Below are positions 1 to 16,001 of a stretch of DNA of 64,000 nt, piece by piece. Where the stretch lies: positions 1 through 64,000 of IMG/VR virus record IMGVR_UViG_3300048837_000975. One strand, 5' to 3'. The stretch's first letter is position 1; each line of letters opens with the position of its first letter. A program made the translations under genes and the position numbers. The DNA comes from a virus. The notes under the pieces were generated by a model, which searched no databases, had not been told where the DNA came from, and saw nothing but the letters and a program-made list of their open reading frames with translations.

Positions 1-50
1 GCAAGGAGCGTGATCTCAACTTCATCGAGGCGCAGCTTCCTAACCGTCAT
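1..50 (-). CDS. hypothetical protein, 5' part only (runs off window edge)
   Basis: ATG at 50-48 preceded by purine-rich SD (GAAAGGAAAG) directly after hammerhead 1; open frame MTVRKLRLDEVEITLL to the edge. Confidence 0.6.
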   Translation of the reverse strand, partial: MTVRKLRLDEVEITLL

Positions 51-68
51 GGTCGCTTTCCTTTCAAT

Positions 69-120
69 GGACTCATCAGCGCTGGCCTTACCAGCGGACC
101 GGGTTTCCCCGGTTTCGTCC
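69..120 (-). ncRNA. type II hammerhead ribozyme (copy 1)
   Basis: Minus strand reads GGAC-GAAA-CCGGG(GAAA)CCCGG-UC^-CGCUGG(UAAGG)CCAGCG-CUGAUGA-GUCC: full core (CUGAUGA, GAAA, GUC) with perfectly paired stems; predicted cleavage between 97 and 96. Confidence 0.95.
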
Positions 121-314
121 TAACACGCTTCGATCGTGTGCCAGGTGACCTCACCCTTGCGAACCATCGACCATGCGATATCGTCCTTTTCGTCAAACAG
201 GGCGACCGATATCTCGGCGTGCTCAGGAGCGTTAACGAACAGCGGAAGGTCCACCACTAGGGCCGAGCATTCGAGCCCGCAGTATGTCCCGTGAAACAGG
301 TATGACTTTCTCAT
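120..314 (-). CDS. small hypothetical protein
   Basis: 64-aa ORF; TAG overlaps first G of hammerhead 1; 4-nt overlap with upstream ORF. Confidence 0.75.
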   Translation of the reverse strand: MRKSYLFHGTYCGLECSALVVDLPLFVNAPEHAEISVALFDEKDDIAWSMVRKGEVTWHTIEAC

Positions 315-529
315 AGATCAACCCACTGTTGGCAGCTGTCGCACCACCTTGAGGTTCCAGGCGCATGGCACGGATCATCCGCTTCCGGATGATCGCACCG
401 GATCGCGTACGACCCGATAGGCTTCACCCGTCCGAACGCGTCAATCCGTTCGCGTTGCGGCTTGTTCCTGGCGACCGGGATTCCCTGCAACGTCTTTACG
501 GGACGGAGCCCGAGTTTCGTGGTTCTCAT
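311..529 (-). CDS. small hypothetical protein with Cys/His cluster (possible Zn-binding)
   Basis: 72-aa ORF with C..H..C..H..CxxC; translationally coupled to both neighbours. Confidence 0.7.
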   Translation of the reverse strand: MRTTKLGLRPVKTLQGIPVARNKPQRERIDAFGRVKPIGSYAIRCDHPEADDPCHAPGTSRWCDSCQQWVDL

Positions 530-747
530 TATCCAACCAGCTTAAAAGCGATCGAAGCCATCCGGTAAACCGGCAGGGCTACGAACTTGATCTTATTCTC
601 GTCGCTCAGCTTCTCATACACGGCGAGAATCGCGCTCGCGCTGTAGGTGTCGAGGTTCACACCGTCGACTCGGCCGAGTGTCTTCTCACTTGCGATCTTT
701 CGGATCTTCGAGATCCGATCGATCGCGATCCTGTTCTTACTTGCCAT
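529..747 (-). CDS. small hypothetical phage protein
   Basis: 72-aa ORF, GGGGG SD right after hammerhead 2. Confidence 0.8.
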   Translation of the reverse strand: MASKNRIAIDRISKIRKIASEKTLGRVDGVNLDTYSASAILAVYEKLSDENKIKFVALPVYRMASIAFKLVG

Positions 748-760
748 TCAAACCCCCGTT

Positions 761-812
761 GGACTCATCAGGCGGCGCGCTACGCCGCGACCCGCCGGAG
801 CGGGTTTCGTCC
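761..812 (-). ncRNA. type II hammerhead ribozyme (copy 2)
   Basis: GGAC-GAAA-CCCGC(UCCG)GCGGG-UC^-GCGGCG(UAGCG)CGCCGC-CUGAUGA-GUCC; stems differ from copy 1 but stay paired; predicted cleavage between 789 and 788. Confidence 0.95.
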
Positions 813-1096
813 TAGTCAGCATTCCTAACGTCGAGCGTTCCGTGCACGTAAAGGTTCCCGCGGTGGAACCGCCGGTGCGTTACTATGAACTTGTCTCGCT
901 CGCTGAACGTTTCAAACTCCTCGGCTGAGAAGTTTTCCTTCCAATCGCGAGGCTCATCTACGCTAATAAAGTCACCGTCGACCAGAACCACCGTCCAACG
1001 CTTGCGCGCGTCGGAGCTTGTAAACTGTCCGGTGCTTTTCAAAAACTTCCCGGTCAAGGCTACGACCGAGCCGACCGTGATATCTCGCTTTGCCAC
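812..1096 (-). CDS. small hypothetical protein flanked by two hammerheads
   Basis: 94-aa ORF, GTG start with AGGGAGG SD, TAG overlapping hammerhead 2. Confidence 0.8.
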   Translation of the reverse strand: MAKRDITVGSVVALTGKFLKSTGQFTSSDARKRWTVVLVDGDFISVDEPRDWKENFSAEEFETFSERDKFIVTHRRFHRGNLYVHGTLDVRNAD

Positions 1097-1108
1097 TTCA
1101 ACCTCCCT

Positions 1109-1163
1109 GGACTCATCAGCGCACGCCTTACGTGCGGACCGCCCGAGCGGGGCGGTTTCGTCC
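1109..1163 (-). ncRNA. type II hammerhead ribozyme (copy 3)
   Basis: GGAC-GAAA-CCGCCC(CGCUC)GGGCGG-UC^-CGCACG(UAAGG)CGUGCG-CUGAUGA-GUCC; predicted cleavage between 1137 and 1136. Confidence 0.95.
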
Positions 1164-1438
1164 TACTTGTTAACCTCGACCTCTAGTTGCGCCATGGTTG
1201 CGACCATCCGCTCCAGCGCGTCTGAATCGAGTTTTCCGCACCCTACCGGAGCGCCTACCGGAGACCGGAACCAAACACCGCCGCTGTAAACGTACACGGT
1301 TCCCAGAACCAAGGCGTAGGTCACTGGCTCCGGAAAGCGGGTCGGAACCGGATCCCATCGCGTATCTCGGACGCCGGCTTTCGGCTCGACCTTCACAACG
1401 CGGCCGAACTTGCCAACCCTGATCGTTAACTCACTCAT
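1163..1438 (-). CDS. small hypothetical protein (first gene of operon)
   Basis: Start reassigned to ATG at 1438 (MSELTIRV) because of GGGAGG SD; TAG overlaps hammerhead 3. Confidence 0.75.
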   Translation of the reverse strand: MSELTIRVGKFGRVVKVEPKAGVRDTRWDPVPTRFPEPVTYALVLGTVYVYSGGVWFRSPVGAPVGCGKLDSDALERMVATMAQLEVEVNK

Positions 1439-1473
1439 GCTTTCAAACCTCCCAGGCTCATCACTTGAGCCGG

Positions 1474-1520
1474 GTTCCGCGCGAGGTATCGAACCTCGTA
1501 ACATCTCATGACCGCGGAAC
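1474..1520 (-). ncRNA. tRNA-like minihelix (acceptor stem plus T-arm, no anticodon arm)
   Basis: GUUCCGCG...CGAGG-UUCGAUA-CCUCG-CGCGGAAC: 5-bp T-stem with UUCGA loop stacked on a 7-8 bp acceptor-like stem; only a 14-nt linker replaces the D and anticodon arms. Confidence 0.65.
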
Positions 1521-1663
1521 TTGTTTTCAACTAGGGCTTTGCTGCATTCAGACTAGGTCGACGATGCACTACCCACACCGTTTTCCGACCTACTGTAAGC
1601 TGGCGATCCCCTGCTTGTCCGGCTAAGGCCGGAGAGCAGGTTACCCTCTGCGCTTGTTTTCAA
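1520..1663 (-). promoter_or_regulatory. structured leader bounded by two boxA-like motifs
   Basis: TTGAAAACAAG repeated at 1520-1530 and 1653-1663, resembling rrn boxA (CTTTGAAAAC); between them a CCUGCU..CCGGC/GCCGG..AGCAGG hairpin and a UAGGUCG/CGACCUA stem with possible UGCAU/AUGCA pseudoknot. Confidence 0.5.
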
Positions 1664-1901
1664 AGTTCAACCGGGGGCTCCCCGGAGCGTTTCGGTTTCC
1701 CGACCCGCTTGCCTCACTCACTCTAGCTTGTCTTACGTCGGGGGCTCGTACTTTCTTCCTGCCCCTTCACTTTTCTTCTCTTCTCTTCTCGCCCTCCCTT
1801 TCGGGAGTTTCTCGGGCGGGCCGTTTCGGCCCCCTTCTATTCTTACGCGCGTCCCCCGGGTTTTCTCCCCCGGGGTTCTGTCGCGTCTCACAGGGTACTA
1901 T

Positions 1902-1917
1902 AGCAGGGACCATGCCA
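1902..1917 (-). promoter_or_regulatory. candidate sigma54 (-24/-12) promoter
   Basis: TGGCATGGTCCCTGCT = GG-N10-GC, close to TGGCACG-N4-TTGCW, pointing into the small-gene operon. Confidence 0.5.
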
Positions 1918-1925
1918 GGCCCCGG

Positions 1926-2210
1926 CGTAACAGGCGGCCCACTGGCCAAGCGGAAAACAAGCCAGGTCCGGGGACCGGCGTTCCCCGCCAGGGGCCGCCA
2001 GGGGCCTGTTACGGCCCCTGTGACGCGTAACCCGTTACGGTGGCCTCTGTCGGCCCCTGTCGGCCGGGACCCGACAGGGGACTACAGGGGCCTACACGTG
2101 CCTACATCTCCCCACCGGGGATTCCAGCCCCACTGGAACCGGGACCCGGGATGTAGGCAGATGTAGGCTCATGTAGTGCCAGGGGGACCCAGGGTTCCAG
2201 CCGGAACGGA
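1926..2210. repeat. GC-rich non-coding array of inverted and 10-bp-phased repeats
   Basis: CTACA at 2082/2092/2102 mirrored by TGTAG at 2152/2162/2172 around TTCCAG-N5-CTGGAA; CGTAACAGGC (1926) / GCCTGTTACG (2004); CGTAAC-CC-GTTACG (2026-2039). Confidence 0.75.
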
Positions 2211-2237
2211 ATTCAAGCCACGGCGGAACCCGGCCGG

Positions 2238-2516
2238 CTACCGCCCGCGGAACCCGGGGACTCGCGGGATCATCGCGTTCAGGGCCGCCTGCCGTTTCGC
2301 GCAGGGAGTGCAGCGCTTGAATCCTAGAGCGCTAGTGACGCGATGGATCGCGTCTCCTAAGCCAGCTCCGCTTGAAGATCGATCGGCGATAATCTGATGA
2401 GCCTGATCTTGCGTAAGACCTTCCCATCGCGCCCCGTCGCGCCTGTCCAACACAGCGAAACCATTAGCGTTTCTTCCTACCAGTAACCACGGCGTGTTAG
2501 GGTGATATGGTTTCAT
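2238..2516 (-). CDS. hypothetical phage protein with GLGD...CxxC..R motif
   Basis: GLGDAIHRVTSALGFKRCTPCAKRQAALN; start taken at MKPYHP. Confidence 0.7.
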   Translation of the reverse strand: MKPYHPNTPWLLVGRNANGFAVLDRRDGARWEGLTQDQAHQIIADRSSSGAGLGDAIHRVTSALGFKRCTPCAKRQAALNAMIPRVPGFRGR

Positions 2517-2517
2517 C

Positions 2518-3135
2518 TCACTTACACCTGTCCGGAGAAACGGCAATACGCGTCAGCCAATTCCAAACGCCACCGGCCCATGCGCAATAATTGCGAGGCG
2601 TCAGGTGTCCAATCGAGTCGGCCAGCGGCAGCCCGAGCTGAGAGCTTTCAAACCAATGCGAGTCGTCGAACATTGTTCGCAGTCCAGCGAGCACACCGTT
2701 GCTCTTCTCGAACTTCTTCGCGGGCGAGATCCAGATCACCTCGGCGCCGGCAGCTTTCGCGGAATCGATCAGGCTCTTGGCGGCTGCCAGCTGGCGTCCG
2801 GCCATAGCGGAGTGCATGGCTTCGTCATTCGTTCCGAGAAGTATCAGAACATGAGTCGGTCTCAGGGAGGCGAGCTGCTGCTTTACGCAGGCTGCCTGAT
2901 CTCCTGTTCCAACGAACCGGTCGATCGTGTATCCGACCTTGCCGCAGTGAGCGAACGCGACGCCAGATTCCTTCGCCAGCATTCCTAGGGGAGTCTTGAG
3001 CCCGACCGATAGCGAATCTCCGATCAGAAGAATGCGAGACTTCCCTGGCGTCACGCGTGGGGCAGACGACTGCGCAGAAGCCAACCCGATTCCGGCGGCA
3101 ACCAGAAGACCAGCGTAGATCCAAGCGCGACTCAT
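2518..3135 (-). CDS. SGNH/GDSL hydrolase with N-terminal signal or membrane anchor
   Basis: IGDSLS block I, LGTND block III, DxxGH block V; hydrophobic N-terminus. Confidence 0.85.
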   Translation of the reverse strand: MSRAWIYAGLLVAAGIGLASAQSSAPRVTPGKSRILLIGDSLSVGLKTPLGMLAKESGVAFAHCGKVGYTIDRFVGTGDQAACVKQQLASLRPTHVLILLGTNDEAMHSAMAGRQLAAAKSLIDSAKAAGAEVIWISPAKKFEKSNGVLAGLRTMFDDSHWFESSQLGLPLADSIGHLTPRNYCAWAGGVWNWLTRIAVSPDRCK

Positions 3136-3147
3136 TCTCTACCTATA

Positions 3148-5247
3148 TCACGAGATGGCTGGCCGCTGCAATGACCAAGCGACCGTTACGGAATTCGACA
3201 CGCCCGGAGCAGCATCAAGGTTGATGACGAAGTCGGTGGCAGATCGACTCGTAACATAGGCGTTTGTAGATCCTGCAGCCGGCGTCCCGGTCGTAGCAAC
3301 GACAGAAACGAGAGGAAGGTAGTTCGCGTCGTGCTCCGGGGTTGGAATCGTAACCGTAGAAGTCGTGTTTGCGTTAGAGATGGTAACCGAACCGGACGGT
3401 GACGGCCAAGTGTTCACTCTGGCGTTCCCGCCGGTCCAGGTAACCGTCGGACGAGTTGCTAAACCGATCAGAAGAAGAGCGCTTCCGGTTGATGACCCGT
3501 TTGCTGCCGTTATTGAGTCTCCTGATGAAAATGTGACTGAGTCAAGGCGCGGAACGCAGTGCGTTGACTGTATGTTGATTCGCGGATTTGTGTGTCCGGC
3601 CGGCTGTGCACCAAACCTAGTGCCGTAGAAGTTTACCGTACACCTGGTTGTTTGCTTATCGAAGATATAGTTGTCCACTGTCTCGTACGTTCCAGCGGGA
3701 AACGTTGCGCTAACTCCGCTTCCTAGAGAAACCGTTGATGCGGTGAGTACGTTGGCGCTCCAAGCCGCAGGTACACCTCCGGTTATTGTTCTCCGTTGAA
3801 ACTCGGCAACGCCTATTGTTCCGCCAACGACAATCTGGACCTCGATCTGGTCCCACGTACCGAACGGACCTCCAACGATCCCAACGTTTGGAGAATCAAG
3901 CGTATACAGATTGTCTGAGTCATAGGTTCCGGCAGCAAAGTTTGCTACAGATCCCTCTTTTTCCAAAGCAACGGTGGCGCCAGTTGTTTTGGTGTCGCTC
4001 CAGTCTCCTCCGTTGAATCTGTACCTAAAGGTAGCGACTCCTCGGGATCCTCCAGTAAGAACATCTATCTCTAGAGAATCGAACCACCTCGGACCGGTGT
4101 ACGTAACATCAGGAGGAGTGGTTCCTGATCCAATCAGCGGAGACGTGACGTACCCAACTATTCCGCCGCCAAACTCAAATTCAGGAACGGTGTCGGTGTT
4201 GTCGTCGCTTACGTTGTTTTCTGTATGTCCGCTCACCATCACAAGAGCATGTCCGCCCTGGACGTCCATCGCTTGGCCTCGGTTGCCTTCGACTGTCATT
4301 CCGTAGAACGACATGTCCGGGCTTCCTGGTCCATAGTTCCTTAGAAAAATTCCACAGTTAACCGTGTTTGAGATTCTCAGCTTAAACCATCTGGTGTCCT
4401 GCAGCCCTGGGGAATACTCAGAGTAGACACCGTATCTTCCGCCAGAGAACGATATGTTGCTGAAACCACACCCAAGCATCGTTCCTAGGACAGTGAGCCC
4501 GCCGTAGGTTCCGGCTCTCCTCAGCGACACGTTCTGTATCGTGCTTACGTTTGAGACCTGCGCTCCGCTGTCGACGAACAACGCGGCTTCTCTAGTGTCT
4601 TGCGCATTGATCTGAAAATCAGACCAGATCAAGCTCACGGACCTACCGGTTACTCGCACCACACATTCTCCAGCCCCGGATGACTGTAGGATGGTTTGGT
4701 CTTGCGACTGACCCTGGATCCTGCACACGGCACTGTCGTAGCTAACGACAAGTTCACCGTCCAGCCTGATGGTATCCGCTGGTAGGAAAAGAACCTGACC
4801 CAGCGTCACGGACTCATCGAGCGCGTCCTGCAGAACCTGGGTACAGTCAACAGCGGACGGGTCCGAGATTCCGGCGTTCTCAAGATATTCTCTAAAATCA
4901 ACTCTTCCACTGTCAACGGACACATTGGATCCAGAACCTGTCACTAGCGCCCCAGAGAACTGGATATCGCGAGACGGGTACTCCGTTCCAAATCGATCCT
5001 CTACAGAGATCGAAGAGGACGCCTGAATCCACGAACCTCCGCCCGCTGCTGATATCGCGGAAGGGAAATCGTCGGGAACGGACGAGACACTGTACCGATA
5101 GATCGCTCCCTGACTCTGTACCCAGGCTAACGTTCCGTCCTTGAGCAGCCCTGACATCACGTTCTGAAGCGTGTCGCCGACAGGTCCGCCCTCTGTGTAT
5201 GCTAGGTACCCGAATTGTCGAAGCAGTCTAGAGTCCAGATCGGCCAT
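3148..5247 (-). CDS. virion spike/fibre protein with pectate-lyase-like beta-helix
   Basis: DCTQVLQDALD..LFLP tailspike signature, beta-rich repeats, internal duplicated ~70-aa unit, shared N-terminal module. Confidence 0.7.
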   Translation of the reverse strand: MADLDSRLLRQFGYLAYTEGGPVGDTLQNVMSGLLKDGTLAWVQSQGAIYRYSVSSVPDDFPSAISAAGGGSWIQASSSISVEDRFGTEYPSRDIQFSGALVTGSGSNVSVDSGRVDFREYLENAGISDPSAVDCTQVLQDALDESVTLGQVLFLPADTIRLDGELVVSYDSAVCRIQGQSQDQTILQSSGAGECVVRVTGRSVSLIWSDFQINAQDTREAALFVDSGAQVSNVSTIQNVSLRRAGTYGGLTVLGTMLGCGFSNISFSGGRYGVYSEYSPGLQDTRWFKLRISNTVNCGIFLRNYGPGSPDMSFYGMTVEGNRGQAMDVQGGHALVMVSGHTENNVSDDNTDTVPEFEFGGGIVGYVTSPLIGSGTTPPDVTYTGPRWFDSLEIDVLTGGSRGVATFRYRFNGGDWSDTKTTGATVALEKEGSVANFAAGTYDSDNLYTLDSPNVGIVGGPFGTWDQIEVQIVVGGTIGVAEFQRRTITGGVPAAWSANVLTASTVSLGSGVSATFPAGTYETVDNYIFDKQTTRCTVNFYGTRFGAQPAGHTNPRINIQSTHCVPRLDSVTFSSGDSITAANGSSTGSALLLIGLATRPTVTWTGGNARVNTWPSPSGSVTISNANTTSTVTIPTPEHDANYLPLVSVVATTGTPAAGSTNAYVTSRSATDFVINLDAAPGVSNSVTVAWSLQRPAIS

Positions 5248-15409: not shown

Positions 15410-15925
15410 TTAGACTACCGTTCTGTTCCTGGTTGACTCGACCAAGTTCGAGTATGTGATCGCGTCAATCACGGTAAGCACGAGAGTACCATAGATGTCA
15501 TAGTACAGGGTAGTAATCGTGCTCGGCAGACCCGTAGGATCCCTAACAACAATCTCCTCGAGAATCTTCTGAACCTTCGCAGGCGACGTGTACCACGTCG
15601 CTGATGCGTAGAACGGATCTCCTGTCGGAAGAACCTCACGGAACGCCCCGTTTACTAGAGTGTCCCCGGGCTCCAGAGAGTAGCTGATCTGAACCCAGCG
15701 ACCTCCTCCTCCGGCAGCTACGACTTCAGGGAACGCAACCGGGTTAGTGTTGTCCTTTTCAAACGCGTACAGCGCCTGCTGCGAAACAACCCAGCACATG
15801 CACCCGTCGGGCAGCGGAGTTGCGATGAGATTCTCTAGCGTGTTGCCGGGATGCCCACCCTCAGAGTTAGCAGCCCACCTTCGCGGGCTGATGAGTGCAG
15901 GAATACCCTGTGCTGAGTCGACCAT
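15410..15925 (-). CDS. putative virion protein with shared anchor module
   Basis: ANSEGG..TL...DG..WVxSQQALY module shared with 3148..5247 and 26768..29092. Confidence 0.7.
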   Translation of the reverse strand: MVDSAQGIPALISPRRWAANSEGGHPGNTLENLIATPLPDGCMCWVVSQQALYAFEKDNTNPVAFPEVVAAGGGGRWVQISYSLEPGDTLVNGAFREVLPTGDPFYASATWYTSPAKVQKILEEIVVRDPTGLPSTITTLYYDIYGTLVLTVIDAITYSNLVESTRNRTVV

Positions 15926-16001
15926 CGTGGCACTATGCCACGACCGGCAAGTTTAATCAACGGGTCATTGATCTTTGTGTCACGGAAACAGTGACGAAAC
16001 G

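Follow-up and report, generated by a model that had tools for sequence, protein, structure and literature searches.

Described phage hammerheads and the array in the present record

Type II hammerhead ribozymes were introduced by Perreault et al. (2011; PMC3088659). In the parts of that paper drawn on here, clustered hammerheads flank single genes in prophages, and they were proposed to cut long phage transcripts into gene-length mRNAs; three tandem arrangements cleaved in vitro, and one triple set, from Agrobacterium tumefaciens, cleaved in vivo. A 2019 review (PMC6765202), in its passages on this subject, repeats the processing suggestion and describes the biology of bacterial and phage hammerheads as largely elusive. 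Using cyPhyRNA-seq, Olzog et al. (2021; PMC8782182, in the sections drawn on here) recovered from total RNA both fragments of three type II hammerheads that lie near phage-like genes of Desulfovibrio vulgaris and cleave in vivo. We found nothing further on phage hammerhead arrays in the literature newer than these works. Here we describe nine type II hammerheads of one design, all on the minus strand of the IMG/VR virus record IMGVR_UViG_3300048837_000975, which derives from an uncultured freshwater phage. The window, which is the whole stretch of 64,000 nucleotides (nt) that was analysed, comprises bases 1-64000 of this 125,690-base record (55% G+C) and contains three of the nine copies; the other six lie at the far end of the record (121263-125603).

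The array is a further example of a phage layout known since 2011 and not a new system. As in the prophage clusters of PMC3088659, as described in the parts considered, several same-strand hammerheads including type II stand between individual genes or between blocks of a few genes, and the same role has been proposed for them. In contrast to those clusters, the present record holds nine copies where triples were tested in that work (larger arrays may stand in its Figure 3, Dataset S1 and supplementary figures), and the copies follow one compact, uniform design in an uncultured 125.7-kb freshwater virus record instead of the prophage of a cultured bacterium. The Desulfovibrio vulgaris hammerheads, compared here by the description in part of PMC8782182, are likewise of type II and stand beside hypothetical and phage-like genes, but they occupy three separate genome locations and do not form a single-operon array. 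A compact, uniform array of nine copies with exact predicted cut sites offers a convenient test case for the role of these hammerheads. There is also a likeness to RiboJ insulators and to the RNase III processing of T7 early mRNA, in that a cut upstream of the ribosome-binding site (RBS) gives a defined hairpin 5' end whatever precedes it, although neither belongs to the family of the present elements. RiboJ was engineered from a satellite-RNA hammerhead, to which a hairpin was added, and in T7 the cutting is done by a protein enzyme of the host, with 5'-phosphate and 3'-OH ends as the result.

On the basis of their sequences, the nine elements are probably functional type II hammerheads that stand at the head of a long minus-strand operon and cleave themselves co-transcriptionally. 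In the window, HH1 (1109-1163, 55 nt), HH2 (761-812, 52 nt) and HH3 (69-120, 52 nt) have predicted cuts after C1137, C789 and C97, respectively. The first G of HH1 is the G of the gene 1 TAG, and HH2 and HH3 overlap by one base with the TAG codons of genes 2 and 5. A purine-rich Shine-Dalgarno sequence begins 1-6 nt past the last base of each of the three, and the start codon follows at 12-18 nt. The first-pass annotation had reported three complete type II hammerheads at these minus-strand positions, with cleavage at 1137/1136, 789/788 and 97/96, a first base provided by the G of the upstream TAG and a Shine-Dalgarno sequence within a few nt; core, topology and a count on the sequence agreed with it on every point. 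Its suggestion that the array may continue beyond the left window edge was right in substance, as the window opens at record base 1 and the six far-end copies are on the same strand. A motif scan of the whole record located these six at 125603-125551 (HH4), 125231-125180 (HH5), 124945-124894 (HH6), 123704-123653 (HH7), 122272-122221 (HH8) and 121314-121263 (HH9), each on the minus strand, with predicted cuts after record positions 125579, 125208, 124922, 123681, 122249 and 121291, respectively. From the nine copies we built a covariance model (R1), which gave exactly nine matches in the 125,690-base record, with scores of 69.6-79.3 bits (HH1, 69.6; HH2, 70.9; HH3, 79.3), and no further match in the record at E<=1.

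The placement of the copies relative to the genes was regular. All on the minus strand, the hammerheads bound blocks of 1, 1, 3, 1, 1, 1, 1, 1 and 1 genes; the spacing from the stop codon to the hammerhead was -1, -1, -1, -1, +1, +1, +8, +31 and 0 nt over the nine copies, and the distance from the hammerhead end to the next start codon was 12-21 nt. Beyond HH9 gene follows gene with no gap between them, and no further ribozyme occurs. The phage context is evident from the IMG/VR classification as a virus record and from flanked genes that match the phage families phrog_1297 and phrog_1314.

We also examined how common this layout is among viruses. A pattern scan of IMG/VR for the present design returned at least 119 loci, a sample that is not unbiased and that was obtained with a pattern fixing three stem II pairs. 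In the 119 listed loci, R1 gave at least 196 matches (126 in 80 loci and 70 in 39 loci). Our own structural scanner covered 123 sources, the present record with its nine copies among them. For the others, the largest same-strand count per source was none (1 source), one (84), two (23), three (2), four (6), five (3), six (2) or seven (1), each count being a lower bound (at least that number) because the loci are truncated. Seven hammerheads each were found in two whole records, and in the related IMG/VR contigs L049 and L089 (65-85% nucleotide identity) the seven type II hammerheads of each stand at matching intergenic slots, which shows that a second lineage has kept such arrays over a long time. 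Among the matches listed for the 119 loci, 154 of the 177 type II hammerheads with at least 200 nt of flank (87%) lay between a stop codon no more than 45 nt upstream and a start codon no more than 45 nt downstream, compared with 15.5% of 3540 random positions in the same loci. The stop codon stood within 3 nt of the first hammerhead base in 121 of these 177 (68%) and at 4.3% of random positions, and the commonest spacing was -1, mostly with TAG. The order of stop codon, hammerhead and start codon is thus the rule in these 119 unrelated viral loci, and the view of the first-pass annotation that a gene-punctuating layout is unusual did not hold, since the layout is also described in the parts of PMC3088659 considered here.

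Anatomy, pairing and predicted processing

The elements of each window copy follow, on the minus strand, the order GGAC-GAAA-[stem III hairpin]-GUC-[stem I hairpin]-CUGAUGA-GUCC. The topology, which can be read directly from this order, is that of type II in all nine copies, with stem II opening to the flanks and a loop capping each of stems I and III. The copies are compact and uniform, with a length of 52-55 nt, a stem II of 4 base pairs (bp) and stems I and III of 6 bp each. In the three window copies the core reads C3 U4 G5 A6 U7 G8 A9 and G12 A13 A14, with the A15.1-U16.1 pair and C17. Over the whole set, the conserved core C3 U4 G5 A6 N7 G8 A9 and G12 A13 A14 is intact in 9/9 copies and in 6/6 copies of close relatives; A15.1-U16.1 is A-U, and C17 stands in a GUC context, in 9/9 copies. 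The sole variable core position is N7, which is U in seven copies and C in two, and which is a free position in hammerheads generally. Variation over the nine copies is restricted to N7, the loops and compensated stem pairs. Loop I is UAAGG, UGAAG or UAGCG and conforms to U-R-R-N-G in each of the 15 copies. The sequence of stem II is GGAC/GUCC in 8/9 copies and in 6/6 copies of the relatives, whereas stems I and III vary. The exact word CTGATGAG was counted 9 times in the window, where 2.95 occurrences would be expected, and 0/100 shuffles reached 9. A CTGATGAG...GACGAAAC pair on the plus strand (15888-16000) was considered as a further candidate and rejected, as its order and spacing are wrong for a hammerhead.

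The alignment of the nine copies has standard pairs in 143 of its 144 pair cells, stems III and I being paired throughout (100%), and 8 of 16 pairs vary on both sides. None of 500 shuffles matched the observed pairing or the covariation score, and controls in which the partner was slid were 24-40% paired. The description of stems I and III in the first-pass annotation as different but fully compensated was therefore correct. When the six hammerheads of three close relatives were added, 239 of 240 cells were paired. The only mispair, a U-C in HH6, is the third stem II pair and lies away from the core. The core-adjacent pairs 10.1-11.1, 1.1-2.1 and 15.1-16.1 are intact, in agreement with the acceptance rule given in the part of PMC3088659 drawn on here. 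The three-way junction was both the minimum-energy and the centroid structure in 8/9 copies.

What the sequences show is the anatomy, the conserved core, the covariation and placement of the copies and their retention in relatives; transcription of the minus strand as one RNA, its cleavage at the hammerheads and an effect on stability or expression are predicted on this basis. Each ribozyme would fold during transcription of the polycistronic RNA and cut itself after GUC, and the 4-bp stem II (GGAC/GUCC) would dissociate after the cut. The upstream message would then extend about 24-27 nt past its stop codon and finish with the stem III hairpin, which would bear a 2',3'-cyclic phosphate. The downstream message would open with the stem I hairpin, whose first nucleotide would carry a 5'-OH, and continue through CUGAUGAGUCC to the RBS, with the start codon about 40-49 nt in. 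The operon head would be divided into about ten messages of one to three genes, each with a hairpin at both ends, and the stability and translation of each cassette would be uncoupled from those of its neighbours. Decay that depends on the 5' end is slower on RNAs with a 5'-OH or a terminal hairpin, and a hairpin at the 3' end slows exonucleases; each cassette would likely gain a stability and translation of its own. If the predicted cleavage is true, the phage makes monocistronic, hairpin-capped messages without a protein nuclease.

Several observations weigh against co-transcriptional self-cleavage of a single nine-ribozyme operon. None of the sequencing runs listed for window 1-2400 is recorded as RNA, and a simple scan of 1-3200 found no sigma-70-like promoter; the operon promoter is presumed to sit in the non-coding stretch 1521-2237. 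HH6 has the U-C mismatch within its 4-bp stem II (GUAC for GGAC) and a predicted fold that lacks stem II, so that this copy may, according to the folding model, be weak or dead. Since the 95%-identical relative L122 carries GGAC at the same slot, the mismatch is a private change; HH6 may be weakened or may contain a sequencing error. For the pairing of loop I with the 3' tail, which PMC3088659 describes for many type II hammerheads, no consistent complement of loop I was found in the 3' tails when judged by eye only, and the speed of cleavage at cellular magnesium is therefore uncertain. The Rfam scores of the copies are also low. With Hammerhead_II (RF02276), whose gathering score of 37 bits is the curated cut-off of one model and not a biochemical definition, four copies were listed at 34 (HH1), 27.3, 26.2 (HH3) and 24.2 bits (HH2), and five were unlisted, so all nine are under the gathering score. 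The Rfam scan put forward as a check by the first-pass annotation thus detected four copies at 24-34 bits, while none reached 37 and five did not appear. No Rfam family reached gathering in the window; in 1-3000 the only matches beyond the hammerheads were weak, chance-level microRNA and small RNA (sRNA) matches, and the scan of the far-end 13.7 kb listed HH6 alone.

Upon comparison of the copies with RF02276, we found the element order (stem II 5' strand, GAAA, stem III, GUC, stem I, CUGAUGA and stem II 3' strand) and the core consensus to be the same. The present copies differ in a shorter stem I loop and in having no match to the 3' tail of the model (aligned as GcAGCCaAAg). Because the core, the helices and the topology of a hammerhead are present in them, the elements are classed as hammerheads despite their sub-threshold Rfam scores. 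Standard annotation would miss all nine because of these scores, and viral metagenomes probably hold more arrays of this compact design than have been annotated.

The membership of all nine copies in one array hinges on whether the two record ends are adjacent, a point that also weighs against the reading as a single operon; IMG/VR classes the record as linear without end repeats, and its completeness is estimated by CheckV at 78%. Judged from the sequence, it is fairly likely that the ends are adjacent and that all nine copies form one array of about 5.6 kb. Adjacency is favoured by the presence of same-strand arrays of the same kind at both record ends. It is also favoured by a reading frame that starts 18 nt past HH3 and, in the rotated record, stays open over the join for 45 codons, up to a TAG that provides the opening G of HH4. 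A third point is a public contig of sequencing run X1, which is identical over window 1-119 and extends 636 letters to the left of base 1. The first 36 bases of the window had no match in the viral or metagenome contig collections.

Close relatives, cassette replacement and alternative readings

Three short metagenome contigs carry the ATPase gene (gene 9) with 97-100% protein and 86-95% nucleotide identity. Searches with single-protein patterns found no close relatives of this gene in the viral contig collection, and blastn gave no match to the 4.5-kb far-end array among cultured phages. An intact hammerhead was present at 6/6 comparable slots in the relatives. At two of the six slots the only difference is in the stem III loop, where GAAA is changed to GCAA, both of which are GNRA loops. 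At the other four, one stem or both have been exchanged as a whole, and the hammerhead there is most similar not to its counterpart but to another copy of the present record; the slot-6 copies of relatives L121 and L122 best match HH3 and HH2, respectively, at 97-98%. As judged by eye, the types of stem III and of stem I, in two pairs, are mixed in all four possible combinations.

Whole genes are replaced as well. At the gene 1 slot in a contig of run X1, HH1 (1112-1165) and 1436-2400 are matched, and 322 other letters replace the open reading frame (ORF; joint 1165->1436). At the gene 7 slot, L121 (25-300) holds an unrelated ORF of 86 amino acids (aa) that ends in a TAG overlapping GGAC; nucleotide homology resumes within the hammerhead, and genes 8-10 of L121 have 89-97% protein identity. 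The flanks of these two replaced slots remain 86-99% identical. Public assemblies of the relatives break at hammerheads. The stem swapping and cassette replacement in such close relatives hint at a link of ribozyme repeats with modular gene exchange.

A tentative extension of the cleavage role is therefore that the hammerheads, besides cutting RNA, serve as shared boundaries at which phages exchange cassettes by recombination, with homology supplied by the blocks GGACGAAAC and CUGAUGAGUCC and by shared stems. The two hammerhead-bounded slots with unrelated genes, the best matches of relatives' hammerheads to copies from different slots, the breaks of public assemblies at hammerheads and the mixed stem III and stem I combinations, which by eye amount to mosaicism inside a 52-nt element, are consistent with this possibility. 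A precedent is found in the promoter-stem-loop (PeSL) cassettes of T4-type phages, in which, according to the parts of PMC2839356 and PMC4122927 considered here, short repeated regulatory motifs flank small variable genes of plastic regions and coincide with breakpoints at which close relatives differ by insertion, deletion or replacement. Unlike the present elements, PeSLs are described there as promoter and terminator motifs that act on DNA and transcription and are not ribozymes; the link made here lies in the two cassette replacements. Two swaps are few, however, and the evidence comes from hammerhead-bearing gaps only, while phage mosaic joints often fall at gene boundaries regardless of content. 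The X1 breakpoints flank the ORF only, leaving both leader and hammerhead in place, and short contigs with joints in repeats can be assembly artefacts (the X1 sides are <31 letters).

A broader version of this proposal treats the hammerheads as the joints of a cassette system, in which the shared stem II and interchangeable stem I and III modules would let units of leader, gene and ribozyme move from slot to slot or from phage to phage and leave working chimeric ribozymes at the joints, and in which excised RNAs could close themselves through stem II. Such a system would be the ribozyme counterpart of PeSL or integron-like shuffling of phage early genes; we regard it as unlikely.

The close apposition of stop codons and hammerheads leads to another reading, in which cleavage is conditional. 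The terminating ribosome would unfold the 5' strand of stem II, so that cutting would be set by the density of upstream translation, by magnesium or by a factor, and the elements would act as regulators. The stop codon is within 3 nt of the first base in 7/9 copies, which, together with the same spacing in the 121 of 177 listed hammerheads elsewhere, is tighter than compaction by itself demands, and no obvious tertiary contact was seen by eye. Regulated cleavage of phage hammerheads is also raised in the discussion of PMC3088659, in the portion drawn on here. However, the ribozyme can fold and cut once its 3' strand exits the polymerase, ahead of the ribosome, and the tight spacing fits equally well a pressure for a minimal 3' tail that holds a hairpin; regulation of this kind is accordingly rather improbable.

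Still less probable is the formation of circular mRNAs, in which an excised unit would rebuild a chimeric hammerhead from its own two ends, with the invariant stem II joining the 3' half that ribozyme n leaves at one end to the 5' half that ribozyme n+1 leaves at the other, and would be ligated by the reverse reaction or by a cellular ligase. Since stem II is the same in 8/9 copies and in 6/6 copies of the relatives, the ends of any unit are compatible; this invariance, however, may only reflect the overlap with stop codons and the recent common descent of the copies. In the minimum-energy fold of unit 2 (1136-789), GUCC pairs with GGAC and restores the junction, but this fold has an ensemble frequency of 0.0001 and does not appear in the centroid, the junction is not restored in unit 6, and a 4-bp helix is weak for closing a loop of 200-1400 nt. 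The record does encode an RNA ligase family protein on its plus strand (record 102615-103610, 331 aa, PF09414 with a PHA02142 OB-fold domain), which adjoins DNA methylase genes. The record yielded no ligase of the RtcB type, the kind that seals cyclic-phosphate to 5'-OH ends. A search of the record for the T4 Rnl1 family gave no match, and because the control also gave none, this blank is uninformative. Circular or spliced products were sought without success in PMC3088659, according to the part considered here. With regard to retro-mobility of the cassettes, no reverse transcriptase was found in the record.

Non-catalytic structured repeats that merely resemble hammerheads (protein-binding sites, palindromes like repetitive extragenic palindromic (REP) elements, or decay barriers) are extremely unlikely: although the scores are under the Rfam threshold and the hammerhead identity of the copies rests on sequence, all catalytic unpaired core positions are invariant in 9/9 copies and 6/6 relatives' copies, the helices vary by compensation only, and a hairpin repeat would have no reason to retain CUGAUGA, GAAA and GUC at the junction.

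Genes, leaders and other features

The genes of the operon head are mostly small, genes 1-8 being ORFs of 45-101 aa, and none of the seven that were searched (gene 6 excluded) had a Pfam or PHROG match. Gene 1, the first operon cassette, occupies 1163-1438 on the minus strand and encodes 91 aa from an ATG at 1438. Gene 2 (812-1096, minus strand, 94 aa), which has a GTG start, lies between HH1 and HH2. Genes 3, 4 and 5 (120-747, minus strand; 72, 72 and 64 aa) overlap by 1-4 nt and form the block between HH2 and HH3. Gene 6 (1-50, minus strand) has its ATG at 50 with an RBS after HH3 and runs off the first base of the record; it would continue for 45 aa over the joined ends to the TAG at HH4 if the ends are contiguous, as the sequence suggests. 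Gene 9 encodes an AAA-type ATPase (phrog_1297), gene 10 a protein with DUF2201_N and a DUF2201 VWA-like domain, and gene 11 matches DUF6744.

Upstream of the operon, structural-looking genes on the minus strand end at 2238. Between these and the hammerhead operon lies a repeat-rich non-coding stretch of about 700 nt (1521-2237, minus strand), in which short direct repeats were recognised by eye, namely CCTACAT, GGCCCCTG, GCCGACAG and, occurring twice, TTGAAAACAAG.

The slot ahead of gene 1 contains no hammerhead; its position is occupied by a tRNA-like minihelix and a leader. As judged from sequence and fold, the minihelix (1474-1520, minus strand) consists of an 8-bp acceptor-like stem and a T-arm with the loop UUCGAUA and has no D or anticodon arm. 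Its parts are arranged in the order of acceptor-like stem, 13-nt linker and T-arm (CGAGG/CCUCG), directly followed by the 3' acceptor strand. The relatives' contigs span the minihelix with few changes. It might be a processing signal of the RNase P/Z type. ARAGORN made no call on the minihelix and found no tRNA genes in the record, and Rfam gave no minihelix match at E<=10. With regard to an origin as a host tRNA fragment (attP-like), the exact 25-mer was absent from the genome contig collection. A degenerate minihelix pattern returned 120 loci, 0/120 of which were called tRNA by ARAGORN, and the 12 contexts inspected were ordinary GC-rich sequence, so this search was uninformative.

In the gene 1 leader (1439-1473, minus strand), the hairpin GGCUCA/UGAGCC precedes GGGAGG and UUUGAAAGC; judged by eye only, this leader is similar to a hammerhead's 3' half together with the leader behind HH1. 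A UUGAA(A/G) motif recurs in the leaders after HH1-HH9 and before gene 1 (e.g. 1439-1453, 1097-1108, 748-760 and 51-68), between the ribozyme or Shine-Dalgarno sequence and the start codon, and stands directly past GUCC plus one base in 5/9 leaders. This motif probably belongs to the translation-initiation context of the phage and not to the ribozyme.

Outside the window, a CRISPR-like array was observed on the plus strand of the record (85130-85690). It comprises eight repeats with a period of about 73-74 nt and ends in a 5-bp hairpin, and one more repeat is located near 82340.

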